64,000 nucleotides of DNA from assembly GCF_037042905.1 (NCBI RefSeq), contig NC_087250.1:27096001-27160000 (forward strand), in the 5' to 3' direction. The notes beneath the pieces are model-generated. The model made no database searches. It had not been told where the DNA came from and saw only the letters and a program-made list of their open reading frames with translations. This DNA comes from Lytechinus pictus (Eukaryota). Shown here piece by piece: positions 457-54,262 of this stretch. Position 1 is the stretch's first letter, and each line of letters begins with the position of its first letter. The position numbers and the translations under genes are program-made.

Positions 457-2118
457 ATGGCGTCTAAGTTCCCAACAAAGAAGGGTGGAGAGGTCGAGCT
501 TCGTACAAGGAAAGGTCATGACATGACCTGGTCATGTGACAAGCATGGTGAGCCAATCAAATTTTACTGTAAGAAACACAAAATTCCTATTTGTCATCCA
601 TGCGCTACCAAAGATCACAGTCAGAAACCATGTGAGCTAGACGACATCGAGGATGTCATCTTCGAAAGGAGAAGACAGCTAGATGAAAAACGGCCAAAAG
701 TTCAAGGACTTCACAAACAATTGGAAGCCCTCAGCACGAAAATAAAGACTGTGTCAACGTCTGGAAGTACTCATCTTCGGACAATTGACAACAACATTCA
801 AGATTCATATCACGACAAGATCGATTCTGTTGGAGAAAAGGAGAACAGGATGATTAGGGTTATTAACGAGGAGGCAGATGAGGAAATAAGACTAGTAAAT
901 GAGAAGAGAGAAAAACGGATCAAGGATTGCAACACCGAGAGAGAAAATGAGCGACAAATCATCAAACACAAAGAAGCAAAACTTCTAGCAGATGCAAAGA
1001 AAATCAGCGAAGTTGTTGCTAAGAAGATCAAGGATCTGACTGATAAGAATCAGCATGTAATAAACACTGTAGAGAACATTGAATCAACCATCACACGTAT
1101 TAACCAACATGATGAAACATTGGTGAATGAAGCTCCTCAAGTACTTGCATCTATTGATGAAAATTTAAGTTTGAATGTTCATCAAGATGTTAGCGACTGT
1201 CTTGACCGAATACAGAATGAAGTTGAGAGAATGAAGTTTGTAGAGAGGGAAGTAGGTGGAGAATACTATGGTAGAATTGGTGGGTATATCGGTAAATGGG
1301 AACTTGTCAAGTCAATTCACATTCCATCGGTTGTTAATAACCCGTGTGCGCGTGGTTTAGTCAGTGATGATGAGATATGTGTGCAAGTACGTAACAGTGA
1401 CATGTATATTACAAACATCAACACTCAACACACAGAGAAAGTCATTGATGAAGGTGTGCGTGTTACATCATGTGCGCCCATAGACAGTAACGTAATAGTA
1501 TGTGGTAAGGGGACAGGTGATCGCACGGGTGACAGGTTGAATGGATGCATCACTCTCTATGACAGACAATGGAAGGTGATTAGAGACATCAGCATACCAA
1601 GGAATGGATACGCCGTATATTATAGTGTGTATGTTGATGTTGACAGGGATGGGATGATCATCGCTGGTCAGTTCAATCAGTCTAATATCTACGTCATCAA
1701 TCCTGCTGATGATAAGATAGTAAACACTATTACGATGCAGGGTAAGAAGGTGTGGGATGGGATACAAGCCTTGTCATCAGGTGATATCGTTGTGAAGACA
1801 GATTATAATAAATACACTGTCATCTCACGATCAGGAGAACGGAAGGCTGTCATACACTGTGATGAGTGGGTCTGGTCAGAGTGTCTCGTTGACAAACTGA
1901 CAGACACACTCTACATCGCGTACTGGGATAGAGCGCGTAATACATACGCAGTTGATCAGGTGTCACGTGATGGTATCATCCAGGCAAGAAGGATCGTGGA
2001 ATACGTGAAATCAGATCGCCCTCACCCCAGCAGTCATTGTCTTGTTACTCCTTCTGGTAACCTCGTAGGATGTGATGGAGACAAACTTCATCTTTACAAG
2101 AAGACTTTAATCTTGTGA
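457..2118 (+). CDS. B-box / coiled-coil / beta-propeller (TRIM-NHL-like, no RING in window) protein, single large exon
   Basis: 553 aa ORF with a B-box-type Cys/His pattern (CDKH-x7-CKKH-x4-CHPC-x4-H), a long E/K-rich coiled coil and a beta-strand-rich repetitive C-terminus. It follows a pyrimidine tract and candidate acceptor AG at 429-430; upstream exons may lie outside the window. Confidence 0.85.
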   Translation: MASKFPTKKGGEVELRTRKGHDMTWSCDKHGEPIKFYCKKHKIPICHPCATKDHSQKPCELDDIEDVIFERRRQLDEKRPKVQGLHKQLEALSTKIKTVSTSGSTHLRTIDNNIQDSYHDKIDSVGEKENRMIRVINEEADEEIRLVNEKREKRIKDCNTERENERQIIKHKEAKLLADAKKISEVVAKKIKDLTDKNQHVINTVENIESTITRINQHDETLVNEAPQVLASIDENLSLNVHQDVSDCLDRIQNEVERMKFVEREVGGEYYGRIGGYIGKWELVKSIHIPSVVNNPCARGLVSDDEICVQVRNSDMYITNINTQHTEKVIDEGVRVTSCAPIDSNVIVCGKGTGDRTGDRLNGCITLYDRQWKVIRDISIPRNGYAVYYSVYVDVDRDGMIIAGQFNQSNIYVINPADDKIVNTITMQGKKVWDGIQALSSGDIVVKTDYNKYTVISRSGERKAVIHCDEWVWSECLVDKLTDTLYIAYWDRARNTYAVDQVSRDGIIQARRIVEYVKSDRPHPSSHCLVTPSGNLVGCDGDKLHLYKKTLIL

Positions 2119-9905: not shown

Positions 9906-9937
9906 AAAGAAAAATATAAGAAAAAATATGATATTTA

Positions 9938-10570: not shown

Positions 10571-10573
10571 AAA

Positions 10574-10592
10574 TGGCGTTGCGAGTAGGATT
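10574..10592 (+). promoter_or_regulatory. Primer binding site, tRNA-Ser-like
   Basis: TGGCGTTGCGAGTAGGATT, 3 nt after the LTR. Resembles the complement of tRNA-Ser 3' ends (from memory, imperfect match). Confidence 0.7.
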
Positions 10593-11000
10593 GTGGTTTT
10601 GAGAGTAGATGACCCGTTTTTGCATTAGGAACCCCCTCTTGAGGACGTAACTGCTATCTGATGGAACTTGGTTGATGCAGGACGTCATACTGGATGTAGA
10701 GTGGAAGGTTAGACTTACACACCCGCTGGATTTCAGATGCGCAAACTGGATTGATGCACATCTTCCTAGGAGTGATACAGTTATTGAGATATGAACTTTA
10801 AAGCATTTTTACAGATCCAAGCTTCCAAAGAACTTTAAATGAACTTTAATTTTTTTGGTAGTATTTTGAAGTATATTGTGATCTATTTTTACATGTATGT
10901 TTATATACACAGTTTGTATTAGTACATTTATATTGTTTCACAGTTTGCATTAGTGCATTTGTATCGTCTCATTTGTATCCTTGCAGCCAATTGCAAAATC

Positions 11001-15900: not shown

Positions 15901-16006
15901 GGATAAACCGGATGATATCACTAATGTGCAGTGGAATGTAAGTGACATTGCCCAGGCTCTCAACCACTCACAAGCCCCACCCTCATTTCCAGAAAATTAT
16001 CAGCCT
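12928..16006 (+). pseudogene. pol: Pol part 2: RT, RNase H, integrase (frameshifts near 15180 and 15355)
   Basis: RMPMGL, YLDD, TDAS, ELL, TDN, HHCC zinc finger, [22 protein letters not shown] and [14 protein letters not shown] continue in shifted frames. Confidence 0.93.
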
Positions 16007-20713: not shown

Positions 20714-20715
20714 TA

Positions 20716-21024
20716 CCTGTAGAGGAGCCTGTTTTGGAAGATGGAAATGAGCAGTCGCAGACCAAACCATATGAGGCATTTCTGACTCCCGTTCATGACT
20801 CGTTATTAGATGAAGAAACCGTCAATGAGGAGGGATCCCTCCTTGTCAGTGAGAATGATGTGCCACAATCGGAACAAGAGAAGCCGATGTCTCCCTGTCT
20901 TCGAAGGTCAACTCGCTCCACGGCGGGTAGAAATAATAACCCATATAATCTTCCAAGATCTGTTTTGAGCGAAGGAATTGACCTTTCATCAAACATTTCA
21001 AATTTATTCAATGTATTCTGGTAA
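20716..21024 (+). pseudogene. pol: C-terminal tail of Gypsy Pol, resumed after the insertion
   Basis: PVEEPVLE...LRRSTR; joins in frame to ...NYQP at 16006 if CCT is the duplicated target. Confidence 0.7.
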
Positions 21025-21112
21025 CTATAGTAATGGATATTGGAATTTATAGAAATAATTCATACTTTGTAATTAATAGGTGTTTATTTATGTTGCTGGG
21101 ACAGCAACCATT

Positions 21113-21125
21113 TAGCAGGGGAGAA
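21113..21125 (+). promoter_or_regulatory. Polypurine tract
   Basis: Purine run (AGCAGGGGAGAA) directly before the 3' LTR. Confidence 0.85.
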
Positions 21126-22377
21126 TGTAACAGGTCAGAAAATATATGTACAAAAGAGAGAGAGATATTTTCTATGTGTATGTAAAACTGATCTGTTGAG
21201 AAGGTCCCTGAATGCATTGAAGCATATGTATTGTCACTGAAAGCATTGTATGGAAGTGATCCCTTTCAATCAGAAATACTTCTGAGGAGATCCCTTCAGG
21301 GAAGTTCTCCTTGACCTTGGGTCAGTGAGGGTGATCTTGGGACAGCTTTCTTGATAGCTTGCTTGACACATGACCAAATGAGAGGGAAAGAGACTGACCA
21401 CCCTCTTGCTTTGGGGAGGTCAAGATTTGAGTTACATGTACATTCTTTGATGATCTATTTGAAGGTGGTTTGATTGATCTTCACACTGTCAAAAAGCTGT
21501 ATATTGGGGTGAGTTTCTCATATGTTAATGATTCTCTTAAAACATTTATTTTGATGCATTTTGTGAGATTTTTAAAGAGAAAGTACTTGCATTGCATAAA
21601 TTATTTGATATTGCTGTGATATGTATATGCCATGAATGTAGCAAGAGGAATTTATAAAGGTATCCTCTCTGTGTTATGAATCGGATGGATAGGTATTTGG
21701 AATTATTTTTTTTTGGCAATTATGTACTATTTTTTTGTACATTGAACATGGATTGCACCTGTCAGGATTTATTTTTAGATAATGTACTGTAATCAGAATG
21801 ATTGTGTATAAATTACACATAAGTAGAAAATAATTTGTTTCATTGGTATGATTCAAGACTTTTATCAAAGATGTTATGAATATTTATATTTACAGTGGTT
21901 GAACCTTGGATTCGTCGACAACGCTATGTATGTGACTTTCAATCTGCATGTAGTTTTGTCCTCCTTCAGAACTCAAGAGGGGTGAGTTAATGTTATATGA
22001 TCACAGACAAATTATAACAAAATACATTGTATTGATATTTTGTGACAATTGATCGTGTTTATTTTCTTGTTTATGTAATCTATAAAATCAGATATTGTAT
22101 ATAATTTTTGTGTATTGTTGGACAGTGCCCTAAGTATGTTGAATGATTATTATTATTTTGTGAACATGTTAAAACTAGGTGAGGTTTGAATTCTTTTAAG
22201 AGTACAATGGTTTATTATTGTTTGTGCTGATGATGTAAAAAAATTATTAAAAAAATGATATACATGTACTCATCATTTTTTTTCTTTTTTTCTTTCAAGG
22301 GTTGATCTACCCTCAAAATAAATACCACATAAACTTTTAAATGACTGTGCCATGTGTCATTCATACCTGCCGTAACA
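21126..22377 (+). repeat. 3' LTR (1252 bp)
   Basis: Same termini as the 5' LTR, with an extra segment at ~21479-22098. Confidence 0.95.
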
Positions 22378-22957: not shown

Positions 22958-23439
22958 ACTGACGCCTTTTCTCGGAATGGTCTAAATCGGATCTAATCCC
23001 TTTTGCAACCAAACTCTTCATTTTTAGTGTCATTATCCATAATATGAAGACTTTGTATTGGATTTTCTGTTTGGAAATAAAATCTAATACCGAGACCTCA
23101 AAATGAACACATGTAATTGACATGACTTGCTCATTGTTGATATAAAGTCTCTTTATTATGATAGAGTAAACTCTAAATTTCATTCTTATAGACCATAAGC
23201 ATGTATCTGGTCATTCAGTATGAAGTCTGTGTAATATCGACTATCATTTATACGACCTATTGATTTTGCTGGAAAGCTGAAACCTAGGATAATTTATGTA
23301 CATGTACCCTGGTTTTTAAGTTTGTATAGGTACTGATCATTTGTTGTAATCTTACAGAGAAACCAAAATTCATGGTCTTAGGGTGTAAACAAAAAACTTC
23401 ATATACATATAAATTATTGTATTCACATAAACCATAATG

Positions 23440-24335
23440 GTAACGAGATAAGTCAATGCTCTAGTATCAAATGTCTAGGTGTTATAATTGATAGACATCT
23501 TTTGTGGCATGATCAAGTAGATTCTGTTTGTAAAAAAATATTTGCTGGACTTGCTATGTTAAAAAGAATTCGTCCTTTTGTAGAAAATGATACTCTGAAA
23601 TCATTATATATGTGCCTTATTGAATCACAAATGAATTATTGTTGTGTGATATGGGGAGATCGTTTTCAGATTCATGTGGATCGAATTACCAAACTCCAAA
23701 AAAGAGCAGCCCGTTTGATCCTTAGAAGTCACATATATACCCCATCCAAAGAAATGTTTTCAAATCTAGATTGGACAACCTTCAAGTACAGAATCATTTA
23801 TTTTCGATATATATTTGTTTATAAATGTGTTCATGGACTCGCACCAGAATACTACTCAAATCATTTTCAGGATCTAAACAAAACCCATTCGAAAAATACG
23901 AGGCAGTCCGTCAGACACGATCTTGTTATTCCAAGGTGTCGTTCTGATTATTGCAAGCATTTCTTATTTTACGCCTGTCCAAAACTGTGGAATAGCTTGC
24001 CGGTCATCATACGGGAATCGTCATCTTTAAATTAATTTAAATATAATCTTAAAAAAACATCTCAGGTCGATTGACAATTAAGGTTTACGCTGGCACTTTA
24101 TGTATTTGAATGTTTGAATACCATTGAAATAATCTCTCTAATTTTGCAATGTTTATTATTGATGTCTTCGCAATTCAGCTTGTATTACATTTATTGCATA
24201 TGTTAAGCTATTTTGAATGTTTTTATCTGTAAATATTTTCTGTTATTATATTCTTGTGTATAGGGGCCCCATGGGAGATCAACTGATGTTGGATGGGTTA
24301 CCCCTTTATGAATAAACAATAAACAAACAAAAAAT
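23440..24335 (+). mobile_element. 5'-truncated L2/CR1-group LINE (post-RT region, 3' UTR, tail)
   Basis: KCLGVIID..WHDQVD..NYCCVIWG..LQKRAARLIL..KLWNSLP; terminal GC-rich hairpin region, AATAAA and (AAAC)n tail. Confidence 0.85.
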
Positions 24336-32483: not shown

Positions 32484-35400
32484 TATTGCAATAAAAACTA
32501 TCAAAATACAATCACAAGCAGTCAAAGACTTAAATAAGTGAATGTTTACATACAAATAGAATCATAACCAAATATAAAGTAAAAATTATTAATAAATATC
32601 AAATACAATACAAATTCATACAGATGAAAAAAAAAGTACTACAAAGTGTCACCAAAGAAGAAAAAAGCGGTATGAAAGATTAAGAAGAAAGAGGAGAGAG
32701 AAGAGGAAAGAGGTGAGAGAATTAAGGGAAAAAAATCTGGATAAGACAAAGAGAAGGGAAAGCAAGAGGTGGAATTTGAAAGAGAATAGGATGCAATCTT
32801 CAGAAAAAAAACTCTTTATGCAATACAAGACATTTAACAATGGTCACAAGTAAATAAAGTAGTAATTGAATCGAATCGAGCACAAAAAAGGGAAAAGTAG
32901 AGCTGAGGAAATGTGTTGATATTGCACATGAGTAGATAAATAGATGGAGAGAAATAAAAGAGAGACAGATGGATAGATAGAGAATTTGAGAGACAGAGTA
33001 GATAGACAAATTGACAGATAGAAATATCATGTAGTTCCATAGATTGATTTATAACATAGATAGTGGATAGACAGATATGATAGATATAAGGATAGATATA
33101 ATATGAAAAAAAAGTAATTATGTGTTTTATTTTTCAATATTTTAGCTATTATTCGTTTTCATTCATATAAACGATCATGTGTGATAAAGTAAAACAAAAT
33201 CATGGAGCCAACGTAGTTCAGCGGAACAACCAAAATACAGAGACTGAAGCTTTTGGTCTATAAGCTCAGCTGCATTTGCACGTATGTTCTGCGGATATCT
33301 TCGGTGGGGACTTTTGGATCGCGCGCCCAGCTGATTATGTAAACAAACGTAGACGTAGACTCTTCACTAGTCGCTTTGTGGCAATTTTTCCGGAAAATGC
33401 CTTCGCCAGGGTGTAAAACGGAAACGCGCTATCGGCCGGAGCGGCCTTGCCCCCATTCACTGTTGGTTGATTGACAGTTCTCGCTTGCGTGTCCGTTACG
33501 ATCTCAACGCAGAGGGAGGCATACAATTTTATTTTCAAATCGGGAAGTCACAGTAATTTGGGAGATCGTCTAGTAGACGGGTTCCAATATAATCACATTT
33601 TCCCACCTACTAACAACTTTTCATTAAAAATATAGATGACTTCCAGGGTTTCTTAGAACAAATACATAAACTCAGAAACATAATTCATCTTAATTTGAGA
33701 TTTTTTTAAATCAGCTTCTCACAATGTTAAACGATCCCTTTAAGTACTTTCAAATTCCAATTGAGCAAGCCAGAAAGCGATCCCAACATTTGGAAATGGG
33801 GACTGGATAGTGCAATGCATGTGTGTAGTGGGATGCAACTAAGTGATGAGAAGGAGACAATGATATGGGAGAAAGAAATAAAAGAAATCATGACATGAAA
33901 TGAAAACATAAATAGAGCATGTTAGAGATAATCATGATAATAGAACAAAATTGTGAAATGACGATGGTTAACCCCTGCTTGTGTATAGATAATGCTATTT
34001 TAGAGATTCCCTTATATGGTATTTACGAATTTCCGCAAGATTTTGGTAGGAACCTTCTTAAACATAATAATTATATACAAAGAACCATAAATAGAGATTA
34101 GATAGGTATGATATAAAATTAAGTTTGGGGAAGCGTGATTTGAATCACAATGAAAATACACATTTGTTTGTATTTGGAAGGGGGGGGGGGGTTATTTACA
34201 AGAGCCTCTGTCATTAAACTATTCAAGGGTCAAATGATCGTACATATTTCATTCCATTAGATTCTAACTAGACATGCTGCCACTCAATGAGACGGAATAA
34301 ATTAATAATAATTAACGTTGTAGAAGCAGAGTAGAACATTTCTTTTAGATTATTCCTGAATATATTATGCAAAGTGTTCACAAGTGAATTCTTGACAAGC
34401 AAATGCAGTATTTTTATGGCTCAATTTGAGCCTGAGATAGATTTGTTATGGCTCAATGCAGTATTTGTTATGTATTAATCCATCCAAGCCATCAAGACAG
34501 ACACCTACTCCAGATAATCTTGGGTATTTCGTTAGAGTCTGTTGACTGGTCACCTATTTATAACAATAATGATGCAAACATGTGCTTCAATAACTTTCTG
34601 AATATTTTTATTAGGGAATTAGATAAGCATATTCCAAAAGTAAAAGATAGACAAACTAACTACAAAAAATCACCGAGATTTCCTTGGATATCTAAAGCAC
34701 TTTTGCGTTCAATTAATAACAACAAAAAAATTATATTATAATTCAAAATTTAAAGGCACTCTTCAGGCAAAAACTAAATACACCACACATACGAATACTT
34801 TAACTAAGGCAATACGTTTGGAAAAGAAAAGAAATTTCACTGGTCAAATAATTCTGTATAAGCACGACATTCAAAATACATGGCAAGTTCTCAAACAAGC
34901 CATGAATCTATCCTAATAAGTCCGATATAACTTCAATCATGGAGCTATTAGGTAAAAGCTCTATGCTTCAATTAGGTCTAACGGTGATATTATTGGAGAT
35001 CCTGAAAATATAGCTAATATTTGTAATGATTATTGTTCATCTATAGGAACGAACCTTGCGAGAGAAATCCCCCCTTCAACAAAACATTTTCATGTTTATC
35101 TAGGTACACCTAATTCTAGTTCAATATTTTTCACTCCCGTAGTCCAAAAAAGATATTACTGATTAAATTTAATTTTAATAATAAAAAAGTCCTGGTTATA
35201 ATGATGTCAATAACTTTATTTTAAAAGGTATAATATCTGAAATTGTCGATCCTTTGACATATTTTTAACATTTCTCTAACCTCCGGGCAAGTCCCTGATC
35301 GCATGAAAGTTGTCAAGGTCATTCCATTGTACAAAAAGGGTGACAAGTTAAGTATCAGTAACAATCGCCCTATTTCTTTTGAATCATTCTTGTCCAAAAT

Positions 35401-35879
35401 TTTAGAAAAAAAGTGGTTTATAGTAAAATAATTGATTTGTTAACATCTCACAATATTTTTTCTAACTTTCAGTTTGGATTTAGAGAAAAACATAACACAG
35501 AACATGCATTATTGAATTTCGTTGATAAAGTGGCCCACGCTTTTGATAATTGCTCACATCTAGTTGGCATTTTTCTGGACTTCTCCAAGGCCTTCGACAC
35601 CATTAACCATGATATCTTATTACATAAACTTTCTCATTATGGGGTGCGCGGGAAGGCCTTGGAGTGGTTCAGAAGCTACTTGTCCGACAGACGTCAATTT
35701 GTATATTTGAATGGTCATGCATCCAACATGCAATACATTAATTGTGGATTCCCGCAAGGCAGTTTGTTAGGCTCTTTATCATTTATCATTTATATTAATG
35801 ACTTTTGTAAATCATCTGATGTCCTTTCGTTCATACTTTTTGCAGACGATTCTGATATATTTTATTCCCATAAAAATCC

Positions 35880-36389
35880 GGTTACACTTCGTAATTCCGA
35901 AGGTTCTTTATTCCGAAGGTTCGTAATTCCGAAACACATAAATTGCCTATACCTCGATGTTCGTTAATCCGAAAACGAAAAAGGGTTCGTTAATCCGAAC
36001 ATTTGTGGCGTAATTCCGAAGGTTCGTTAATCCGAAAAGGAAATGAGAGTCGTAATTCCGAAGGTTCGTTAGTCCGAAAACGAAATGAGGTTCGTAATTC
36101 CGAAGGTTCGTTAATCCGAAAACAAAATGAGGCTCGTAATTCCGAAGGTTCGTTAGTCCGAAAACGAAATGAACAACGAACCTCATTTCGTTTTCGGATA
36201 AACGAACCTTCGGAACAACGAACTTTATATCGCTTTCGGATTAACGAACCTTCGGAACAACGAACCTCATTTCGTTTTCGGATTGTCGAACTTTCGGAAC
36301 AACGAACTTTATTTCGCTTTCGGATTAACGAACCTTCGGAATATCCGAACCTTTGGAATAACGAAGCTTCGGAATTACGAATGTATACG
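35880..36389. mobile_element. Palindromic MITE built of TTCCGAAGGTTCGTTAATCCGAA subrepeats
   Basis: Subrepeats flip orientation near 36170; AAAAATCC duplicated at 35872 and 36390; removal restores the LINE frame HKNP-YTLV. Confidence 0.88.
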
Positions 36390-36999: not shown

Positions 37000-39900
37000 T
37001 AGTAGAGCGGATTAGCTCCAAAAATCACAACAATTGTGCAAATTTTGACTAAAGCATAAAACTTTCACAAGTATTAGTATATGCCATAAGATTTATTTTA
37101 AAGATGGGAGGTAAATTTATAAATGCCATTTTCGGCCGTTGCCATGGCAACGGATTAATTTCTCCAAAACAACATACATTCCCATATAAATGGTAAAAAA
37201 ACATGATATAGATGACCACAATGATAATTTTCAGGCTCCCAATTGAATACATATGAAATTTAGAAAGATTCAAGATCATCAAGATAGTTCCAATTGGTCC
37301 GTTGCCATGGCGACGGCTTGTTTTTCCCCAGAAAAATAAACATTTTGATTAAAAAAAGTTGTAGAATATGATATATCTTTAATTTCCCCTAATTTTACAG
37401 TGCTTAACAAAGATATTTTGGTTGCTAAATGTGTAAATTACATCTCAAGCCATTGCCATGGCAACCAAATAACATCTAATTTACAAAAATAACATGGTTG
37501 TCAAGACAATGGATAGGTAAAAAAAAACAATTGGAATTGACTTAATCTGTATGCTTAAGTTTTGACCCCCTCATTTGAACAAAAAATACAAAATTGTTCT
37601 GCAGGAGTTCTTTATAAAGATAAAATATTATGTTGCTTTGGAAATGCTTGAATTGAATTTAAAAAGGAACAATTTTACAAAGGGCCCGTTGCCATGGCAA
37701 CACCTTATTTCCCTCTAGAAAGGTAAAAATATTGATAAAAATGTAAAATACATGTACGGTATGATCATCATTCCATTTTTCCTAATTTCAAGGTACTAAT
37801 CGAGATATGTTTGTGACTAAATTTATAAATATAACATCTTAAGCCATTGCCATGGCAACCAAATAAAATCTAATTTTTTAAAAAAGTGGATGATAAGGTT
37901 AAAAACAGGTGAAAGATACAATGAATATTAACTTAATGTGCATTCGTAAGGTCTGACCTACTCAATTAATTTAGGGGAAAATAATACAGTCAGTGTTCTG
38001 CATGAACTAATTAAAATAATAAACATTGATGTTGCCTTGGTAATACTTGAATTCAACGATAAATATCAATGTTCCAAATGGCCTGTTGCCATAGCAACGG
38101 ATCATTTACCCAAGAACAGTAGCAGTTTTGATTTTTAAAAAGGACTATATAATCTGATTTTTCTTTCATTTCCCTTAACTTTAGGGTAAGAATAGATATG
38201 TTTGCTGTTAACATGCAAATAACATATAAATCCATTGTCATGGCAACCAAGTAACATCTAATTTGAAAAAAATATATAACATGGTTGACATGATAATGGA
38301 CAGGTGGAAAATGCAATTTATAACAATCAACTCAAGGTTTGACCCAGTCATTTAATTTTGAACAAAGATTACAATGTTTCGCATTTATTTAGTTCATTAG
38401 AATGATGAAATTTGAGGTTGCCTTGGTAATGCTTGAAGTTAATGATAAATATCAATGTTGCAAATGGGCCGTTGCCATGGCAACGACTCTTTTTTCCCAA
38501 GAAAAGCACCAAATTTGATCGAAAAACAGTTTAAAATCTGCATTTTGTCATAAATTTCTCCTAATTTTAGGATGCAAAGCATAGATATGTTTGCTGTTGA
38601 TGTACAAATAACTTCAGCCATTGCCATGACAACCAAATAACATCTAATTTCAGTGGCTTAATTTGGTTTCTATGTTTTAAGGGTGAAGTAGTACATTGGG
38701 ACTAGTTACAAGGACAGCCAGTGGTCTGACGTGTCCAAAACCCTAAGACGGCTTCCAAAATTTGAGTTTGAAATGGCTGTTGATATATAAATGGACATAT
38801 AGGTCATTTCCTATCAATCTGAGATATATGATTTTGGTGTCTAGACCATGGTTTCAATGGTCAAATAATACACTATCACAAGTTGAATGGACAGTCAGTT
38901 GTCCATTATATAAAAAAATCCAAGATGGCTTCCAAAAATGGAGTCTAAAATTGCTGTTGCTGCATTAAAAAAGTAGTTTGCTTGATATCCTGGAATATGT
39001 TTATGTCATGGTTAAATGGGTCAAATAATACATTAGGACAAGTAACAAGGACAGTCAGTGGTCGAGTTTGTCCATAAATCCAAGGTAGCTTCCAAAAATG
39101 GAATAGCTCCTGTTACTAACAAATTGACATATTTCGTGTAATATATGTCAGTAAATACATCATGTACATTTGAACAAGTTACAAGGACAGTCCGTAATCC
39201 AGCGTGTCTAAACATCCAAGATGGCTTCCGACAATTGGAGTCTAATCGGAGTCTGTTACTTAAAAATTGACATAGTTCATTTAAAATCCACCAAGAAAAA
39301 ATTATTTTGGTGTTCACACTTTGGTTTCAAGGTTTTAAAAATATGTTTAGACGGGTTACAATGATATCCAGTTGTCCATTTTTTCCTAAAAATCCAAGAG
39401 GATTTTCAAAATGGCATCTAAAATGACTTATATCACTCAGAAATTATCTGAGTTCATACAACATCAACATGTGAGAAACATTTTTGGTGTCTACACTGTG
39501 GTATGAAGGGTCCACTATTACATTAGGACAAGTAACAAGGATGGTTAGTTATCAATTTTGTCCAAAATCCAAGGTAGATTCTAAAATTACATCAATGGGT
39601 GCTGTTGCCAACTCTTACCTGCTTGCATTTTGAATGTAGGCACCAAAATTATTTCTCACAAGTGGATATTACATCCACTTCAAAGTAACAGTTGTCATTT
39701 TAGAACCCATTTATGGAAGCCATCATGGATTTTCAGGCAAAATTGACAATTGTAACCAGTCCCAAAGTATAATTTGATCCTTGAAACCCTATAGTGTAGA
39801 CACCAAAATAATATAACCAGGTGTATTTTTGATGTACTATGTCCATTTTTTAGTAACATTAAAACCCCCATTTTTCAAGCCATCTTTGAATTTTTTGACA

Positions 39901-42900
39901 CAATAATGACACCTGACTGTCCTTTCAACTTGACCAAATGTACAGTATTACTTGACCCTTTAAATACTAGTGTAGACACCAAAATCATATCCCCATAGTA
40001 TATTATTAATGAACTATATTATGTCCATATTGAAGTACCAACAGTCAATTTAGACCCCCTTTTGGAGGCCATCTTGGATTTTTTAACATACCAGTCCACT
40101 GACTGTCCTCGTAACTTGTTCTAATGCATTAAACCATGGTTTTATGATTATGGTTTAGACATCAAAATCATATTCCCCAGACAGATATTGAACAAACTAT
40201 GTCCTAATTTATTATTTGACTCTTGAAAATATGGTTTAGACACCAGAATCACATCTCACAGGCGGATATAGAATGAGCTCTGCCAATTTTTAAGTAACAA
40301 CAGTCAATTTTAGACCCCATTTTGTAAGCCATCTTGCGTTTTTTAACATACCAAACCACCGACTGTCCTTGTAACTTGTCCTAATGCATTACTTGACCCT
40401 TTAAAATATGGTTTAGACACCAAAATCATATTCCCCAGACAGATATTGAACAAACTATGTTTATTTGTAAGCAACATTAGACATTGTTTTATATCTTTTT
40501 TGGAAGCCATCTTGGAATTTTGGACATACAAGACCACCGACTGTCCGTGTAGCTTGTCCTAATGTATTATTCGCCTTTGAAATCATAGTTTAAACACCAA
40601 AATCATATATCACAGGTGAATATAAAATGAGCTATTCCACTTTTAAGTATCAGCAGCCATTTTATAATTATTTTCGGAAGCCATATTGGATTTTCGGACA
40701 TACTTGACTGTCGTTGTAACTTGTCCTAATATTATTAGACTCTTGAAACCAATGATTTAAAGTCAAAATCACTTCCCCTAGGCCAATATGAAATGAGCTA
40801 CGTCCGCTTTAGGTATCAGCAACCATTTTAGATTCAATTTTTTGAAGCCAACTTATGTTTTTGGACATTCCAGACCACTGGCTGTCCCTGTAACTTGGCC
40901 CTATATGTACTATTGATCCTTAATAACCAATGAATAAAAAACAAATTAAAGCCATTTTATCAAGTAATGGATGCGTTTTGGATTTTTAGCCTACGGCAGC
41001 CAGGGAGGGCACCATCTTGGATTTTTCTGTTACCCTGGAGTACTTAATTTTTCTTTTCAACCTTTCAACCAGTAAGGGTATTTTTAAAAATTTAAATATT
41101 TTAATAAGTCTACTTATCATGTAAAATTAGCAGTGAATAGATTATACTTCATGTTGATTAGATTCATAATTATGTTAATTTAAAGAATTATCACAGTATT
41201 TCAAAATCTTCTTCGTCAAAATCTGTAGCGTAATTTTGAGGGGTCCAGATATGATGTATTGAGTAAAATTTATTTTTAAAAGTTGTCAGCTAGCCCAGCG
41301 AAAGAGTAAAACTTTCGAGATTTTTCATTTTTTTTACAAAAATAAAATTTTGTAAAAGATTTTGGGTATAGTATTCGTAAAATAATCATATTTTATCCAT
41401 CTCTCTTTCAGGTTCTCTTTATTTTTTTCTTGGTAATGATTTTTTTTGGGGGGAGTAGGGTTGCAGAATTTCCGGGAATTTTCTTGATGGAATCTTTTCA
41501 TGGGAATAAACGGGAATTTGGTGGGAATTTTTTGAATTTTCGGCAATTTTCAAGAAATGATGGGAATTTTCAAAAAGTAACAATTTTCTGATATATGCAG
41601 AAATTAAAATGCGTACTAGCAGATGATACTTGATAATTCTTTGTCATCAAATTTCGAGCCAAGTATTATGCTAAAACAGTCAGACAAAGCAAAATTTTAA
41701 TGATTTCCATGTAAAAGTTGATTTACTGTATTTACATTGATTAGGAGCTCAAGACCATGTCAACTCCTCAGATAGACTTTTGATTTTGATTTATCAACGC
41801 CTATTATCCCCTTATATATTGATATGATGAACGGCCTTAAAGCACAAATCACACCAAGACGCTTTCTTCAAAATGGCAGCCTGCGAATACTTTGAACGAA
41901 ATTGACCAGCCTCGAAATTAGAGTTTCGGGAATTTATTTGAGCCCAAAAAAGTCTGATATGATTTTTGTAGGTCTTATTCCGATGCCATGTATAATGAAA
42001 TAAGATGGTGCTTATCATTTAGCATGTTTATGTTCAGCACCCTCAAATAAGGGACAAGGAAATAAAATAAACATATTATTTTTTTCAAAATTTGTACTTT
42101 TAAGGGACCATTGGCAACATTGATATTTATCATTATGTTCAAGCATTACCAAATCAACATATCGTAAGAAATCATGCATAACACTTAATGTGATTTTAAA
42201 ATTAAAAGAGTAGGTCAAACCTTACGCATATTAAGTTAATTTTATTGTATTTTCCACCTGTCCATTATCTTGTCAGCCATGTTATTTTTTGGTAAATTAA
42301 ATGTTATTTTATTGCCATGGTAATGCCTTAAGATGTTATTTATACATTAAACAACAGAGATGTACGTGTATGTTTGGCACCCTAAATTTAGTAGAATTGA
42401 ATGAAAAATAAGATTCTACAAGGTATTTTTTTTATCAAAGATGGTATTTTAGGGGGAATAAAATGACCCGTTGCCATGGGAACAGAACATACATTTGTAA
42501 ACATTGATATCAATAGATTCAAGCATATTAAGTTAATTTTATTGTATTTTCCACCTGTCCATTATCTTGTCAGCCATGTTATTTTTTGGGTAAATTATAT
42601 GTTATTTTATTGCCATGGTAATGCCTTAAGATGTTATTTATACATTAACCAACAGAGATGTACGTGTATGTTTGGCACCCTAAACTTAGTAGAATTGAAT
42701 GAAAAATAAGATTCTACAAGGTATTTTTTATCAAAGATGGTATTTTAGGGGGAATAAAATGACCCGTTGCCATGGGAACAGAACACACATTTGTAAACAT
42801 TGATATCAATAAATTCAAGCATTACCAAGGCAACATCAGTTTTTATCATGCTAATGAACTCATGCGGAACACTTACTGTATTTTTTGTTCAAAACTTAAT

Positions 42901-44621
42901 GACTGGTCAAAGTCAAACCTTATGTAGATTAAGTAAATCTTTACGTTACATTCCACCTGTCCATTATCATTACAACTGTGTTAGTTTGTTTTAAAAATTA
43001 TATCTTAATTGGTTGCCATGGCAATGGCTGAAGATGTTATTTATTTATTAACAGCAAGCATATATATGCTTAGCTCCCTAAAATTGGGGCAAATGAAATA
43101 AAAATCAGATTTTACAATTTTTTTGTTTATCAAACATGATACTTTTCTGGGGGGAATGAGCTGTTGCCATGGCAACGGGACATTTGAAACACTAATATTT
43201 ATCATTAAATTCAAGTATTACCAAGGCAACATAATTATCTACTCATACAGAACTCTTACTGAAATTTTTGTTCGAAATTAAATGACCGGCCAAACCTTTC
43301 GCATATTGAGTTATTTGTATTTGTATTTTCCACCTGTCCAAAATCTTGTCATCCAAATCATTATTTTTTAGTATTAGATATTATCTGGTTGCCATGGCAA
43401 TAGCTTCAGATGTTATTTATACATTTTGCATCAAACATATCGATGTTTAGCACACAAAGATTAGGGGAAATGCAAGAAAAATCAGATTCTATAGTCCCTT
43501 TTTTAATCAAAACTGATACTAAATGATCTGTTGCTATGGCAACAGGCCATTTTGAATATTGATATTTATTGTTGAATTCAAGTATTACCAAGGCAACATC
43601 AATGTTTATCATTCTAATTTAGTTCATGCAGAACACTGACTGTATTATTTTCCCCTAAATTAATTGAGTAGGTCAGACCTTACGAATGCACATTAAGTTA
43701 ATATTCATTGTATCTTTCACCTGTTTTTAACCTTATCATCCACTTAAAAAAAAAAATTAGATGTTATTTGGTTGCCATGGCAATGGCTTAAGATGTTATA
43801 TCTATAAAATTTAGTCACAAACATATCTCGATTAGTACCTTGAAATTAGGGAAAATGGAATGATGATCTTACTGTACATGTATTTTACATTTTTATCAAT
43901 ATTTTTACTTTTCTAGAGGGAGATAAGATGTTGCCATGGCAACGGGTCCTTTGCAAAACTGTTTATTTTTAAATTTAATTCAAGCTTTACCAAGGCAACA
44001 TTAATTTTTATCTTTATAAAGAACTCCTGCAGAACACTTTCTGTATTTTTTGCTTCAAATGAGGGGGTCAAATCTTAAGCATACAGATTAAGTTAATTCC
44101 ACTTGTATTTTCCACCTGTCCATTGTCTTGTCAAACATGTTATTTTTGTAAATTAGATGTTATTTGGTTGCCATGGCAATGGCTTGAGATGTAATTTACA
44201 CATTTAGCAACCAAAATATCTTCGATAAGCACTGTAACGTTAGGGGAAATTAAAGATGAATCATATTCTACAACGTTTTTTAATCAAAATTTTTACTTTT
44301 CTGGTGAAAAACAAGCCGTTGCCATGGCAACTGACCAATTGGAACTATCTTGATGATCTTGAATATTTCTAAATTTCATATGTATTCAATTGGGAGCCTG
44401 AAAATTATCATTGTGGTCATCTATATCATGTTTTTTACCATTTATATGGGAATGTATGTTGTTTTGGAGAAATTAATCCGTTGCCATGGCAACGGCCGAA
44501 AATGGCATTTATAAATTTACCTCCCATCTTTAAAATAAATCTTACGGCATATACTAACACTTGTGAAAGTTTCATGCTTTAGTCATAATTTGCACAATTG
44601 TTCGGCTAATCCGCTCTACTA
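37000..44621. mobile_element. 7.6 kb non-autonomous foldback DNA transposon with TAG...CTA ends (Academ-like, inferred)
   Basis: TAGTAGAGCGGATTAGC...GCTAATCCGCTCTACTA, 3 bp duplication ATA, inverted arms over 1 kb, many GTTGCCATGGCAAC copies, no long ORF. Confidence 0.9.
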
Positions 44622-46895: not shown

Positions 46896-47187
46896 TTTTA
46901 TTTATTTTTTTTTGTTGTTAATCTGTGTTGTCATTTTTTATTGATAATGTATTTGAATAAATGTATCGATTATTTTCTGGAGATATACCGTTTCTTTTGT
47001 CCATGCCCTTATTTAGGGGAGGGGGGGGGGGGGTGACTGTAAAGGTCATCCCCACTTGATTTTTTTTTAAAGGATTTATCCCCCCTCCCCCATCCGCTCA
47101 GGATCGACACCCATGATTATTACTAATGGCATTAAGTTTGATTTTTAATTGTTCCTTCTACAGGTAACCCCAAAGTAGGCAGAAGCC

Positions 47188-47464
47188 ATGACGGAATTTG
47201 ATAATCTCCTGATCAAAGTGGCTAAACAAGTCTTCCTAAACTCGGAAATCGACACATTGGGAAGAGAGCTTGGATTTACTCCTACCGATGTTCAACGTCA
47301 TATAGCAACTAATCTCAAAACACAGAACGTTACTTGGGATGGAACTCTTAACATGCTCCGGGATTGGCGTAAAAGTCAAGAAATTGCAACAGAGAGAGAA
47401 GGTCTGAAGACTGCTCTGAAGAAAGCAGGTCAAATTCGTCTGGCTGATGAACTCTTTCCTCTAA
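47188..47464 (+). CDS. Death-domain exon of a DD-coiled-coil-beta-propeller gene
   Basis: LGRELGF..DVQRH..MLRDWR..LKTALKKAGQIRLADEL death-fold pattern; acceptor TTCTACAG at 47163; in-frame stop before GCCATG; phase-1 donor GTAAGA at 47465. Confidence 0.82.
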
Positions 47465-48037
47465 GTAAGAAAAAAAAATAAAGTGTACAAATCTTATTTA
47501 TTCTGATAAAAAGTTTCAGGCCGCTTTTAAAAATTCATTTCCTGGTATTTTGGTATTAGTACACCGTGCTAATTTATTGTTCTTCTTCTTCTTCTTCCTC
47601 CTTCTCTTCTTCTTCTTCTCAGTCCCTTCTTTTCTTCACCCTTTTTTCTCTTCGTTCCCCTTTTCTTTGCTCCGCCAACGACGGGCCTCTTCTACTATTG
47701 ATCCTTGAAGAAAGAAAATAATTTATTTTCCTAACTTCCCTTCGTAATTCTGTTTAATTCTCAATAAAAATTATCATTTTCTAACTTTTTGTAATGATTT
47801 AATCTTAAGACATCCGGTTAGAGAGGTGTAGTTGTCGAGCACCCGCCTTAGACTGTTAGAAGTTAAAATAGATTGAGTGTTTAAAAAAAAATGGCCCTTC
47901 TTTCTTCTTATCAAGAGAGTAACGTCTTTGAGAAGATAAAAGCACATCCCCTAATTGGCGACCGCTGGGAAATCAGAGGCTAAAACATTCACATTTAAGT
48001 ATTAAATTTAATATTCTTGTTATTTTTTCCGATGTAG

Positions 48038-49617
48038 GTTACTCTGTATCTCAGACTGAAATACATGACAGAGATGTCAAAGCAAAGCGACGCAAAGTCG
48101 AAATTCCTTCTCCGAGTGTCAAAGAAGACGACCAAAAACAACGTGACCGAGACGACACTGGAGACGACATGAGGAAGCAAGTCGATGAGAACATGGACCA
48201 TGATGAGAAACGGGCCATGTTAGAGAAAATTAAACAACCGCGCAAGATAGTTGAATCGAAACTTACGGACCTTTCGAATTCATCAAGTAAGCATCTCGAT
48301 ACAATTAAGGGTGATATACAAGAGACATTGGAAGATATTAAAGGTAATTTTAATGATATAAAACGGAAAAAAAATAAATTGATTAGGGATATTGACAAGG
48401 AGGCAGATAAGGAAATACGAGCAATAAAAGAAAGGCGACAAAAACAGATCGAAGCCTATAAAGGTGAGATAGCACGGGAACAAAAAATAAGCGAAGACAA
48501 ACAAGCTAAATTGTTACCATGCTTGTCAGACACAGATAAAATCAGCGAAATAGTTTCCGACAAGATAATGGATCTTACTGGTAAGATTCCGGATGCTATA
48601 AAGGATAACCAACATGATGAAACATTGGTGAATGAAGCTCCTCAAGTACTTGCATCCATTGATGAAAATTTAAGTTTGAATGTTCATCAAGATGTTAGCA
48701 ACTGCCTTGACCGAATAAAGAGTGAAGTTGAGAGAGTGAAGTTTGTAGAGGGGGAAGTAGGTGGAGAATACTATGGTAGAGTTGATGGGTATATCGGTAA
48801 ATGGGAAATTGCCAAGTCAATCCACATTTCATCGGTTGTTAATAGGCCGCGGGTGCTTGATCTGGTCAGTGATGAAGAAATATGTGTGCAAGACGTACGT
48901 AACAAAGACATGTATATTACAAACATCAACACTCAACACACAGAGAAAGTCATTGATGGAGGTGTGTCGATTACATCTTGTGCGCCCATAGACAGTAACG
49001 TTAAAGTATGTGGTAAGGTGAGAGATTATCGCACGGAAGACAGGTCGGATGTATTCATCACTCTCTATGACAGACAATGGAAGGTGATTAGAGACATCAG
49101 CATACCAAGGGATGGGAAGGGTAATAATGTGTATGTTGGTGTTGACAGGGATGGGATGATCCTCGCTGCTCAGTACAATCGGTCTAATATCTACGTCATC
49201 AATCCTGCTGATGATAAGATAGTAAACGCTATTACGATGCAGGGTAAGGAGGTGATGGGTGGGATACAAGCCTTGTCATCAGGTGATATCGTTGTGAAGA
49301 CAGATAATGATAAATACACTGTCATCTCACGATCAGGAGAAGAGAAGGCTGTCATGCACTGTGATGAGTGGGACTGGTCAGAGTGTCGCGTTGACAAACT
49401 GACAGACACACTCTACATCGCGTACAGGGATGGGGATGAAGCGAGTAATACATACGCAGTTGATCAGGTGTCACGTGATGGTTTCATCCAGGCAAAGAAG
49501 ATCATGAAATACGTGAAATCAGATCGCTCTGACTGGGTCAGCCCTTGTCTTGTTACTCCTTCTGGTAACCTCGTAGGATGTGATGGAGACCAGCTCCTTG
49601 TTTACAAGAAAGTGTAA
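48038..49617 (+). CDS. Linker / coiled-coil / beta-propeller exon (paralogue of 457-2118, no B-box)
   Basis: Acceptor GATGTAG at 48037, phase 1, open to the stop at 49617; spliced product 618 aa. Confidence 0.85.
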
Positions 49618-50073
49618 GTTCCTACCGAATCGTTTTCAGTAACTCATGATATTTCATTCCGCACCAGGCCCGCACTAAAATAGTCATCACCACAAGCATT
49701 CGGTGTGAAGCGCGATTAAAATCTACACATTTGTTCTAGTTTCAAAAAAAAGATATTAGGAAGGGGGCAACGATCCTGTCTGGCAATAAAATCCCCAGTG
49801 CCTCCTACATACTAATGCATGCAAGTGGGAGGGGGGGGGGGGTGGGGGATTCATTTTGACAGAAGGTATAAGTATATGTTAGCTTTCTTATTGCAACAAG
49901 ATTCGTTACTTCCTACATGTAGTAGATCGTTAATGCATCGCGCGATGAAATCTATTGAAAACTTACCCTTAAAATCGGCAATTTGAGCGCTCCTGACGGT
50001 TTTTTAGGGTTATTCCCGTTTAATACCCTCTTTTCAAAGTTTCATTTCCCCAATGTTTTTGTATGTTCTCTAC

Positions 50074-50960
50074 TAGTGGCTTACCGTAGGTCACGGCATT
50101 GTGGGGGGACACCATCAACAATTTTGAGTCACTTGGTGTGCGCGCGAAGCGCACTCAGTTGCCAGGTAAACTGACCGAATAGAAACATTTTAAGGACAGT
50201 GCCATAAAACGGATACAATGTATGTATCTCACTGATCAAATAATGCGACCGCATAGTGTGAGCTAATATTTTTTGTATTCAGACCTAAAAGGGGATTTTG
50301 TAAAAAAAAATGTAATCATGATGCGTACCTGTGTCGCTAAACAATGCAAGCGTGAAGCGCGAGCTGAATTTTTTTTATATATTGACCCCAAACGGAGATT
50401 TTGAGGACTATATCTTACGAATACATAAAGAGTAAACATATATCTCACAATCGTCATCTAATGCAAGTGCCAAGCTTGCTGATTTTGTTAGAATCAAATC
50501 TAAACACATGAAGCACTTGTATTCATTGTAATCATGAATAACATACACATCTCACTAATCAAATATTGCGAGCGCGAAGCGCGAGCTGAAAATTTAGGAA
50601 ATTCAGACCTGAAGAGGGGCATTCTAAGGCTTGTTTGTAGGAATTTACTAGGACAATACATATTTTACTAACCAACTGATATACTTGGTATATATTGACT
50701 TGAAAACTTGAGGTTTTAACACAACATGATTATATATCCTGTTAAACAGACAGTGCGAGCACCAGGAACGATGAAGATATAGGCCCTGAGCAAATTATGT
50801 TTCATAAAGTTATCATAACAGTGTTTCTTCTGTAATATAACATAACATAATTATAATATAATATTATAATTAATAATAATTTCCTCTTTCCCATTACGTT
50901 TCTCTATGGGGGGGGGGGGGGCACGTGCCCCCATGCCCCCCCCCCGTAATTACACCACTG
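50074..50960. mobile_element. Non-autonomous hAT-like element
   Basis: TAGTGGC...CACCACTG ends, 8 bp duplication TTCTCTAC, internal GCGAGCGCGAAGCGCGAGC motifs. Confidence 0.8.
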
Positions 50961-52432
50961 TTCTCTACATACCACAGTTGTGTGGATGTACATGTTTAAT
51001 GTTATGCGCATTAACGTCACAAAGGATAAAAAGGCTGGTCACGGTGATTAATCAATTGTAGGCTTCAGCTGATATTTTTTTTATATGATGTGCCTTCCAA
51101 CTACAGATCCGATATTTTATTTCATAAAGCTAATTACAATAGCTGAAAATAATTCATGGACCAATATAAATTTTAAAGGCCACTACACTTTATGAATACT
51201 TCACCTTGAAGTGCTGCAAAGAATGACAAATATTAAGAATTAATGGTATAGTGGTTTGCAATTTTTCCTCACATTGATACAAAGACTCTGGCGTGTTTTT
51301 TTAGCGTTAAATAGCATACTTGCTCCAACAAAAGTACTGATAGCTTGAAAAAAAAAACATATTACCCCGTATTTTGCTTAATGTTTACACCGTTTTAATT
51401 ACATCTTCCTACAAGCATGCATTTTTGTTAAAATAGTATGGATTTTGAATGTACATCATTTAACTTTTCAGATTTGTTAAAGAAATTTCAATCTTTGATG
51501 AAGTATTTTTGTCATCTTTTTTTACCGTTTGAAAGAAATAAAGGCGCCGCTACCCTAAAAGAGCAAACGAATAGAAAATAAATTATCCTTCTTCAGTAGG
51601 CCTAATATAACTATAGTGTACAATTTGATGAAATTTACATGCATCTGGACTCAGAATTAAAGGTTTAAACTTAACATCGTTATTTCTTCGATTCTAAAAA
51701 TGGCAAATCCTGATGTGCAATTCTCGAGAACTTCCAACTGGGTGAACTTTAAAGCAAGTGTAAAATCAAGCACATAAACCAATGCTATATTTTGGATATT
51801 TGAGATATTCAGGTGCTAAAAGTAAGCCGAGATAAACAAAACACACAAAATGAAGTGACGTTCAAAGGGGTGGTAAAGTAATCGGGGCAAACTCCATGCG
51901 CTTGGTTGCGTGGAGGTGTAAGTATTAAAAAGATAATGTCATGCCTATACCATCCTGTTATTTTTTTATTTCACTATCTTGTTTTATAGCAATATCTGAA
52001 AGGTATGGTTTTATGGTTTTATCAGAATATTAGTCTGTAGACTTTGCGAGGGGCCATAGGCCATGTTCACTAGAGGCATGACAGGGAAAATTGTAATTTG
52101 TCTCAGATGTAGTTTATTACATTACTTTAAAATATAAGATAGATGTCTCCAATCTTAATATTGGATATTTTAGACATATCTCAACTCTTTAACCTTTTGT
52201 ATGTCAAAGTTTAAATAAGGCATCGCCGTTCAATTTATAATAAAAATGATAATATATAAACAATGTTTCTTAAAAAACAAATTTATCTCTTACCAAAAAA
52301 AAAATATATCTTTAAAGTATTACTTTGTGAGCACTTTCTTCCCATTTTTTAAATCATATTCTCCACTTTAGCTTCATGGGTTATAGAGAGAGTCTCCAAG
52401 GAATGGGTATGTATTCCTTTTTTTTGCAAAGC

Positions 52433-52468
<36 letters not shown>

Positions 52469-53232
52469 GTTAAATGCACATTTTTTTCATTATTATTATT
52501 ATTATTATAAATATTATTATTATTATTATCATTATTATTGTATATTTAGTGGACTCAGATTGAGGCAAGAATTTCTTTATCAAGTGGCAACTATCGTAAA
52601 GTATGTCCTGACAATAATCCATAATGAATAATCTTCAGATTCAACTTTGGGGCGCCATTTTGATGACATCATTTGGGGATGGGTTTTTCTGGGTAAATCT
52701 TATGTGGAATATTGTAAGGACATACTTTCAAGAAAGTCGAAATTTGCTTGCTATATGAAAGTTGCCAGTTAGTATTATTGTAATTATCAATTTTAAGGTC
52801 ACTTTTTAGCTATTGTATTCCCTTGCTGGCTTATTTACAGTGCACATTACATCTGAGCAAGAAGGGCTCCCTTTTTCTTGTCTGAGTAACTCAGCATGTG
52901 AAATGCCTGATTTAGCTGAGGGCTTAGGTAAGCACCATCAAAGCCTTACATGTGCACGCTTGAGATTGAGCGGGTTTTGGGTGCGTAGTTATGGAACTAC
53001 ACATGTCCGTTTCATTTCACGTGTGAGGAATCATTTCAGGTATCGAGTCCTGACATTTTAAAATGGAAAATCGCCAGCAGTCTGAATATTAAATTTATAA
53101 AAGAGATCCGATCAGGTTGGTGTTATCTCGAAAACTATTGGTTTAGGCAAAAAATGAAATTTGATAAGAAATCGGCCTAAGCACTTTAAGGAAACAAGCT
53201 CACCATCTATAAATATTCTTATTTTGGCAGAT

Positions 53233-53596
53233 ATGGCAGAAATCGGTGGCAGTAGTGTTTCTTCAGCAAAAGCCCATCAGAAAGAAGTTCACACCCTTGA
53301 AAGCAGAGAGGATTCAGGTGATATTCCTGAAATGATTCGAATCACGAAATATGGCATAGAAGTACAAATACCACCAAACAAAGCTTACAGTGCAAAGGAT
53401 ATTACGGTCGAAGTGATTGACGAGGTTCCACCTGAGTTGAAGATCAAGGAAACAGAAGCAATCATTACCTATGGTTTGAAGATGAAGGCGCCTTCTAATG
53501 CAATCTTTGAACATCCAGTTCAAGTGACGATGCCTCACTCTGCTGTATTCAAACAACCAAAGAATGCGGAAATCATATCATACTGTAGGAAAAGTG
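53233..53596 (+). CDS. ZU5-UPA gene, coding exon 1 (ZU5 domain)
   Basis: YGIEVQIPP...FEHPVQVTMPHSA ZU5-like signature; acceptor at 53230, phase-1 donor at 53597; candidate upstream non-coding exon ending 52927 (GTAAGC). Confidence 0.8.
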
Positions 53597-53993: not shown

Positions 53994-54262
53994 CTTCTGC
54001 AGACTTTGTTGCAATACCTTCTACAAAAGACATCAGTCCTAGGTGTGTGGTAAGAAAAGGGGACCTCGATATCTACTTCCATCACTTCTGCGAATATTGG
54101 TTCGTTGCTGTCCGTGCTGTCTACGACCTGTATAACAAATTCAAGGGAATATTCATTGGAAAGCGCCTTGTCTGTACGCCCTATGTTCCGATACCACCTT
54201 TTCTGAGCAAGATACACATCTTGTTTGTCCATATAAGAGATGCACACAAGGAAGAGGGGGAG
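53994..54262 (+). CDS. ZU5-UPA gene, coding exon 2 (HFC motif, start of UPA-like region)
   Basis: TTTTCAG acceptor, phase 1 to phase 0; DIYFHHFCEYW. Confidence 0.78.

Follow-up and report, generated by a model that had tools for sequence, protein, structure and literature searches.

Probable repeated exchange of a linker–propeller cassette among separate head lineages in a Lytechinus gene cluster

A 64,000-nucleotide stretch of Lytechinus pictus DNA (the window) holds two genes, here gene 1 and gene 2, whose coiled coils have diverged markedly while the linker and propeller that follow in the same exon remain closely alike. Both belong to a tandem array of RING-less, TRIM/NHL-like genes in Lytechinus, a cluster whose heads are of B-box, Death, Death-TIR or TIR type. 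The explanation that we favour, with a probability of roughly 0.7, is that a younger pool of linker–propeller sequences has been exchanged repeatedly among old, separate head lineages by non-allelic homologous recombination, accompanied by diversifying selection.

Architecture of the two genes and of the propeller

The features needed below are as follows, in window positions; X1 and X2 are public runs, and P numbers denote protein models.

457..2118 (+), gene 1 coding sequence: open reading frame of 553 aa in a single coding exon; P0001
529..621 (+), gene 1 B-box: residues 25–55; PF00643, 25.6 bits against a cut-off of 24.1
646..1100 (+), gene 1 long coiled coil, on the non-shared head side: helices 64–140 and 146–215 (DSSP on the model)
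1065..1100 (+), gene 1 segment facing the gene 2 deletion: 36 nt against 3 nt, from DNA and family alignments
1101..2103 (+), gene 1 shared cassette: linker residues 216–279, propeller 280–549
47164..47464 (+), gene 2 Death-domain exon: ATG at 47188; 5' boundary from the sequence
48038..48605 (+), gene 2 exon 2, head part: B-box remnant, then divergent coiled coil, from alignments
48603..48606 (+), breakpoint: probable 3' edge of an in-frame deletion and onset of similarity to the cassettes of the cluster; end of the long coiled-coil helix
48606..49613 (+), gene 2 shared cassette: linker and propeller, ending at the splice donor GTAAGT (from 49614)
52372..52406 (+), gene 2 exon 3: 35 nt, AG/GT ends; joint 49613–52372 in an X1 contig, depth 16
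53231..53596 (+), gene 2 exon 4: ZU5, Pfam E = 2.2e-5; matches P0121, splice predicted
53994..54262 (+), gene 2 exon 5: match to P0121
61005..61115 (+), gene 2 exon 6: match to P0121
62817..62967 (+), gene 2 exon 7: match to P0121
63582..63743 (+), gene 2 exon 8: tblastn range, ends approximate

The open reading frame, Pfam and an AlphaFold model (mean pLDDT 86.8, alignment of 82 rows) together give gene 1 a layout of B-box (zf-B_box, Pfam E = 1.4e-5), coiled coil, linker and six-bladed propeller; in the model a long coiled coil (helices 64–215) follows the B-box. A protein search with gene 1 returned 138 relatives at E ≤ 0.001, 120 of which were listed. Among the matches listed, many lie on gene 1's own contig, and those with a named source come from L. 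pictus, L. variegatus and Strongylocentrotus purpuratus. The family profile matched the B-box/coiled-coil regions of TRIM5 and TRIM25 (E = 5.6e-5 and 2.3e-4 respectively). Gene 1, gene 2 (P0121) and seven relatives all lacked a Pfam RING match at E ≤ 0.1, and neither NACHT nor B30.2 was found by Pfam among the 13 proteins or frames scanned.

The propeller model superimposes on the NHL domain of Mei-P26 (Z 23.8, rmsd 3.3, 255 aligned), and the top ten hits of a structural search with it are all NHL domains of TRIM-NHL proteins (Z 22.4–23.8). NHL-bearing clusters were likewise nearest in a feature search (score 0.94); a profile search reached TRIM2/3 NHL chains weakly (E 0.037–0.3), and the same Pfam scans gave no NHL match at E ≤ 0.1. 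Loops were classed from the strands of the AlphaFold model, one blade 6 strand being placed by hand. Mean entropy across 17 paralogues was 1.01 for top-face loops versus 0.14 for bottom loops; between genes 1 and 2, 30 of 70 positions on the top and 2 of 51 on the bottom are different. The point estimate of pairwise dN/dS was 1.27 for the propeller and about 1.2 for the whole cassette. By a crude residue count, the net charge of the top-face loops runs from 0 to -16 in 17 of 18 paralogues and is +2 in one. The propeller is probably a ligand-binding domain, one face of which changes fast.

Gene 2 corresponds to the L. pictus RefSeq model P0121 (1081 aa), which comprises a Death exon, a coiled-coil/propeller exon and ZU5 exons. 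Seven gene 2 exons with AG/GT ends encode the first 928 residues of this model without a stop, and its last 100 residues lie outside the window. The Death domain scores E = 0.0019 in Pfam, under the cut-off; its joint to exon 2 (47464–48038, GT..AG) is present in contigs of X1 and X2. The sequence-only reading had gene 2 end shortly after the propeller and found its 3' UTR unrelated to that of gene 1, a comparison that falls away: the TAA sits within a GT donor (GTAAGT, 49614), and an X1 contig joins 49613 to 52372. An end at YKKV is ruled out by this splice to the ZU5 exons (X1 contig, P0121).

The B-box region of gene 2 is a remnant only, its Cys/His ligands gone, and gene 2 is not counted as having a B-box; the remnant is still recognisable at window positions 48090–48165. 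This argues that the Death exon was added ahead of a decaying B-box gene. In P0122 (L. pictus, 370 aa) a region like the last 90 residues of gene 2, as judged by eye, precedes a Death domain that has 60% identity to the first exon of gene 2. Its layout suggests that a single neighbouring type of gene supplied both the Death exon and the tail. As to longer fusions with the cassette, only gene 2's own model and one metaclust record were found. P0125 (1434 aa), possibly a fused gene model, joins a propeller cassette (63%) to alpha-2-macroglobulin-type Pfam domains.

Repetitive elements also occur in the window. An LTR retrotransposon-like element at 9937–22377 has gag-, protease- and RT/RNase H/integrase-like ORFs at 10923–16009, read by eye, and near-identical terminal repeats at 9937–10570 and 21125–22377 (99.7% and 97.6%), of which the second is interrupted by about 615 nt; a tandem/inverted repeat array lies inside it at about 16640–20080. 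Shorter tandem units make up a 1.65-kb inverted repeat (86.6%) at 37000–44621, which has more arrays between its arms, and fragments resembling non-LTR reverse transcriptase, again by eye, were seen at 23382–24035 and 35383–35967.

The intra-exon edge at 1101/48606

The sharp breakpoint within the exon that had been proposed from the sequence is real: over the aligned bases of gene 1 positions 700–1330 a single change-point falls at 1101, and none of 500 permutations gave one as good. At the gap, identical bases number 45 of 60 just before and 61 of 62 just after. Gene 2 is indeed about 11 aa shorter at the junction (net 33 nt), with 1065–1100 of gene 1 facing 48603–48605 of gene 2. To describe the coiled coils upstream as only distantly similar understated their likeness, given 69% DNA identity over gene 1 positions 850–1100 (dS 0.74, dN 0.34; 73 codons) and a BLASTN alignment that is continuous from 851/48380; a second identity step lies near 851. 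Across the cassette (1101–2103) DNA identity is 90.6%, with dS 0.087 and dN 0.105 (332 codons). In this one gene pair, silent divergence thus differs about eight-fold across the edge. Silent changes at unchanged residues number 11 of 34 upstream versus 11 of 259 downstream (p = 3e-6), so protein constraint alone is not the source of the step.

The cassettes themselves fall well short of the near-100% identity first reported for them, having 907 matches, 90 mismatches and 15 gap columns in 1012, with a longest identical run of 55 nt; the encoded proteins are 80% identical, and most differences are replacements. Similarity does stop at YKK, as described, and the flanks past it do not align. Synonymous changes do tend to sit next to variable patches: 7 of 11 purely synonymous codons have a replacement or gap no more than one codon away, versus 73 of 259 candidates (p = 0.013), although the signal is weak, resting on 11 events, with p = 0.084 within two codons and 0.030 within three.

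Edges recur in the wider family. Change-points fall at residues 202–217 in 53 of the 74 pairs whose coiled coils are less than 70% alike (the pairs are not independent), and in the gene 1 model the long helix finishes at this edge, at residue 215, so that the exchanged unit would be the fold-back linker plus the propeller. In the Death/TIR relatives P0086, P0087 and P0088 similarity begins about 8 residues earlier, directly after a 3-residue gap. The 11-aa net gap of gene 2 is accordingly made up of about 3 aa absent from all Death-type relatives and 8 aa absent only from gene 2 and its twin, P0099. From these alignments, 48606 probably marks the 3' limit of an in-frame deletion that came later, not a crossover site. 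In pairs with near-identical heads, differences begin later, at about residues 250–290, which fits crossovers anywhere in the linker.

Head and cassette histories, and rival explanations

For the family comparison we used proteins from predicted gene models, among them the 18 close ones from the contig of gene 1. A further four on that contig, distant at 33–34% identity, were left out, except P0116, which served as outgroup; models from the older L. pictus assembly were also left out, except P0088. Mean identities for coiled coil, linker and propeller were 0.39, 0.89 and 0.80 between Death-type and B-box paralogues; 0.79, 0.90 and 0.81 among B-box genes; 0.55, 0.82 and 0.72 between B-box genes and copies on another contig; and 0.48, 0.73 and 0.68 between B-box genes and S. 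purpuratus. Death coiled coils are therefore further from those of their B-box paralogues (0.39) than the latter are from S. purpuratus (0.48), yet in linker and propeller Death and B-box genes match as closely as B-box genes match one another, and more closely than they match the copies on another contig. Over 153 pairs, propeller identity averages 0.76–0.81 whether the coiled coils are less than 50% or more than 90% alike.

Separate trees for the two halves, which the sequence-only reading had suggested as a check, proved incongruent. The coiled-coil tree (54 rows) resolves subfamilies that span both Lytechinus species, the Death type with support of 100; the cassette tree is star-like and the coiled-coil subfamilies dissolve in it, while the copies on another contig form a clade in both. 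AU tests were applied to groups chosen after the trees were seen, the final run using 20 rows. P0007 and P0008, with coiled coils 99% alike, were rejected as cassette sisters (p = 0.00045); reciprocally, the cassette sisters P0008+P0037 and P0012+P0086 failed as sisters by coiled coil (p = 1.5e-5 and 9e-62). In an earlier run, one B-box subfamily was rejected as a cassette clade (p = 0.029). The pairings gene 2+P0099 (p = 0.26) and P0011+P0016 (p = 0.19) were not rejected as cassette sisters.

The protein PHI test on 17 paralogues (P0099 omitted for its long branch) gave p = 0.0002 for the cassette and p = 0.14–0.40 for the coiled coil. The cassette value (z = -4.8) was matched by none of 200 no-recombination simulations in which site rates and profiles were kept, in agreement with the patchwork micro-recombination that had been suspected inside the cassette. 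In 13 L. variegatus rows the cassette gave p = 0.0016, and was not significant with two-state columns only. Within-species homogenisation was not detected: framework identity came to 0.864 between subfamilies of one species and 0.868 between species within one subfamily (p = 0.74). A correlation persists between coiled-coil and propeller identity (rho 0.37, Mantel p = 0.017), and 16 residues of the gene 2 cassette are found in none of the 33 other rows. Taken together, the sequences indicate that turnover is not fast for every copy.

The locus of gene 2 bears on the heads. P0013 of L. variegatus has a B-box head, but the last 30 residues of its propeller are 97% identical to those of gene 2, with one residue in common that none of 33 other rows has, and its ZU5 exons are 81–88% identical to those of gene 2. 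The head of gene 2 with its Death exon, by comparison, differs from that of P0099 at only 4 of 282 residues, and the propellers of these two are among the most different pairs. A common propeller end and ZU5 tail under different heads means that the head ahead of the tail was replaced in one species; going by predicted gene models, the swap would have occurred in either the L. pictus or the L. variegatus line.

Could a single event account for these patterns? A Death-headed ancestor might have taken its cassette from a B-box gene once, to be followed by duplications, a rapidly drifting coiled coil once the B-box was lost, and positive selection on the propeller, the gene 2 lineage receiving nothing more by exchange. 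Consistent with this, AU tests in two runs allowed the Death-type cassettes to form one clade (p = 0.47 and 0.155), all Death types have the edge at 202–217 and the 3-residue gap, and the gene 2 cassette is rich in private residues. Death-type coiled coils also evolve faster (0.35 to S. purpuratus versus 0.48 for B-box types), and part of the identity contrast is therefore a matter of rate. However, Death genes compared with one another are 0.57 identical in the coiled coil and 0.89/0.80 in linker and propeller, the latter the same as for Death versus B-box, so the coiled coil would need to have changed far faster than a propeller under selection. Further, the cassette of P0086 groups with that of B-box gene P0012 (support 83–92), exchange is shown between B-box subfamilies, and in L. 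variegatus the gene 2 tail stands behind a B-box head. A one-off origin is thus unlikely.

An explanation without any recombination, in which strong purifying selection on the linker and propeller framework and a relaxed coiled coil produce a step at a structural boundary, has in its favour that the edge is the end of the long helix and that the linker exceeds the coiled coil also against S. purpuratus (0.73 versus 0.48) and the copies on another contig (0.82 versus 0.55). Silent sites step as well, though, and the cassette dN/dS of about 1.2 is not low; pure constraint is rejected on the silent-site step, PHI and the reciprocal AU tests, and we give this account very little credence.

Conversion of a cassette of about 1 kb, as the sequence-only reading proposed, holds as regards exchange between paralogues but not as a recent transfer between genes 1 and 2. 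A recent whole-cassette conversion with its tract end at 48606 would explain the sharp edge, the low dS downstream and the difference of both flanks, and genes 1 and 2 were not rejected as cassette sisters (p = 0.12). Against this, the proteins are only 80% identical; in order of likeness the cassette of gene 1 is 6th for gene 2, and that of gene 2 comes 16th of 17 for gene 1, ranks on which gene 1 is rejected as donor or partner of the gene 2 cassette. The same junction is found in P0099 and an earlier edge in P0086, P0087 and P0088; the last residues of gene 2 match P0013 and not gene 1; and the 16 private residues argue against recent overwriting. We consider such an event highly improbable. 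With two copies compared as DNA, the exchange may have been by non-reciprocal conversion or by unequal crossover.

An assembly mis-join at about 48606 might be feared in a cluster of copies 80–99% similar, which is hard to assemble. The junction was examined in four of the 23 listed runs, over 47100–52425: two contig sets and two raw-read runs. A 598-nt X1 contig covers 48038–48635 with zero differences, passing the edge by 30 letters, one under the 31-letter rule. An X2 contig, from a separate study, is spliced from the Death exon through to 48636, 31 letters past the edge; its two differences are two of the four that distinguish the P0099 head from that of gene 2. Raw RNA reads of X21 and X22 (about 6/100 of each run) reached a depth of at most about 1 over the exons of gene 2. 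With the junction carried by contigs of two public runs, present in a second model on the same contig (P0099) and in frame throughout, a mis-join at 48606 is very unlikely. A mis-join deeper in the linker, placing one Death gene's head on another's propeller, is possible, the contigs being too short to reach it. X1 has no contig at 95% likeness over 48880–49057, with a depth of about 21 on the head and 16 at the tail splice; the gap alone proves nothing, and may reflect another propeller allele on the gene 2 head or filtered records.

Proposed mechanism and comparison with known systems

Under repeated exchange, the heads (B-box, Death, Death-TIR and TIR, each with its own coiled coil) would be the old, separate lineages, and the linker and propeller pool would have moved between copies again and again by gene conversion, unequal crossover or both. 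Purifying selection may keep the linker and the propeller framework alike and so maintain a substrate for pairing. Heterology and indels halt conversion tracts. Extension of a tract in the 5' direction would be blocked by coiled coils that are 25–35% diverged and bear indels, giving the family-wide edge at residues 202–217. In gene 2 and its twin, a later deletion of 8 residues would have removed the start of the shared tract and left the edge knife-sharp at NQHDETL. Diversifying selection on the top-face loops would make variants, which recombination would reassort. The head at the gene 2 locus would itself have been swapped, the same propeller end and ZU5 exons standing under a B-box head in L. 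variegatus.

A likely use of such a family would be as a repertoire of cytosolic recognition surfaces on different signalling heads. More speculatively, the cluster could be a germline combinatorial receptor system in which the conserved intra-exon linker serves as a standing switch region, hypervariable NHL propellers are reassorted, inside genes as well as between them, onto B-box, Death, TIR and Death-TIR heads and a ZU5 tail, exchange is ongoing, and animals differ in the propeller on the gene 2 head. We hold this larger proposal only tentatively; were it true, one recognition repertoire would feed several signalling outputs. As a practical matter, whole-protein trees and orthology calls are misleading for genes of this cluster.

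The closest parallel is with the zebrafish NLR-B30.2 genes (PMC4852459), which likewise have discrete N-terminal groups and a C-terminal domain that crosses groups. Silent divergence between those groups is described there as low only in the C-terminal domain, which is under diversifying selection, and its authors invoke gene conversion with tracts shorter than the domain (PMC4852459). The cluster differs in that NACHT, LRR and B30.2 are absent and the variable module is an NHL-like propeller; moreover B30.2 occupies its own exon, whereas the edge in the cluster lies within one exon, under heads of B-box, Death or TIR type. Fish btr/finTRIM genes (PMC3137616) are also expanded B-box/coiled-coil genes with a hypervariable, positively selected C-terminal domain, in which GARD placed internal recombination breakpoints for btr; they carry RING and B30.2, in contrast to the cluster, which has neither and swaps in Death/TIR heads.

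TRIM-NHL proteins (Brat, Mei-P26 and TRIM2/3/71; PMC4015489) resemble the cluster in their B-box, coiled coil and six-bladed NHL-type propeller with the top face as binding surface. Those top faces are described as positively charged RNA binders, whereas the cluster has no RING and no Pfam NHL match, and its top-face loops are hypervariable and, in 17 of 18 paralogues, neutral or acidic in net charge. SpTransformer (185/333; PMC8634487) is another clustered sea-urchin family for which duplication, unequal crossover, conversion and pairwise dN/dS >1 are discussed, but its proteins are unrelated to those of the cluster and have no domains in common with them by Pfam. The cluster is a member of neither the NLR-B30.2 nor the btr family, nor, lacking RING and a basic top face, is it canonical TRIM-NHL.

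In the mostly open-access literature searched, no description of the gene family was found. Fish NLR-B30.2 and TRIM genes provide precedents for the mechanism, partial concerted evolution with diversifying selection in a clustered family. New by comparison are the NHL-type propeller as the module, the intra-exon edge, the interchangeable B-box/Death/TIR heads, and a sea-urchin family for which no description was found; if its members are sensors, they constitute a further diversified cytosolic receptor family in sea urchins, here in a laboratory species.
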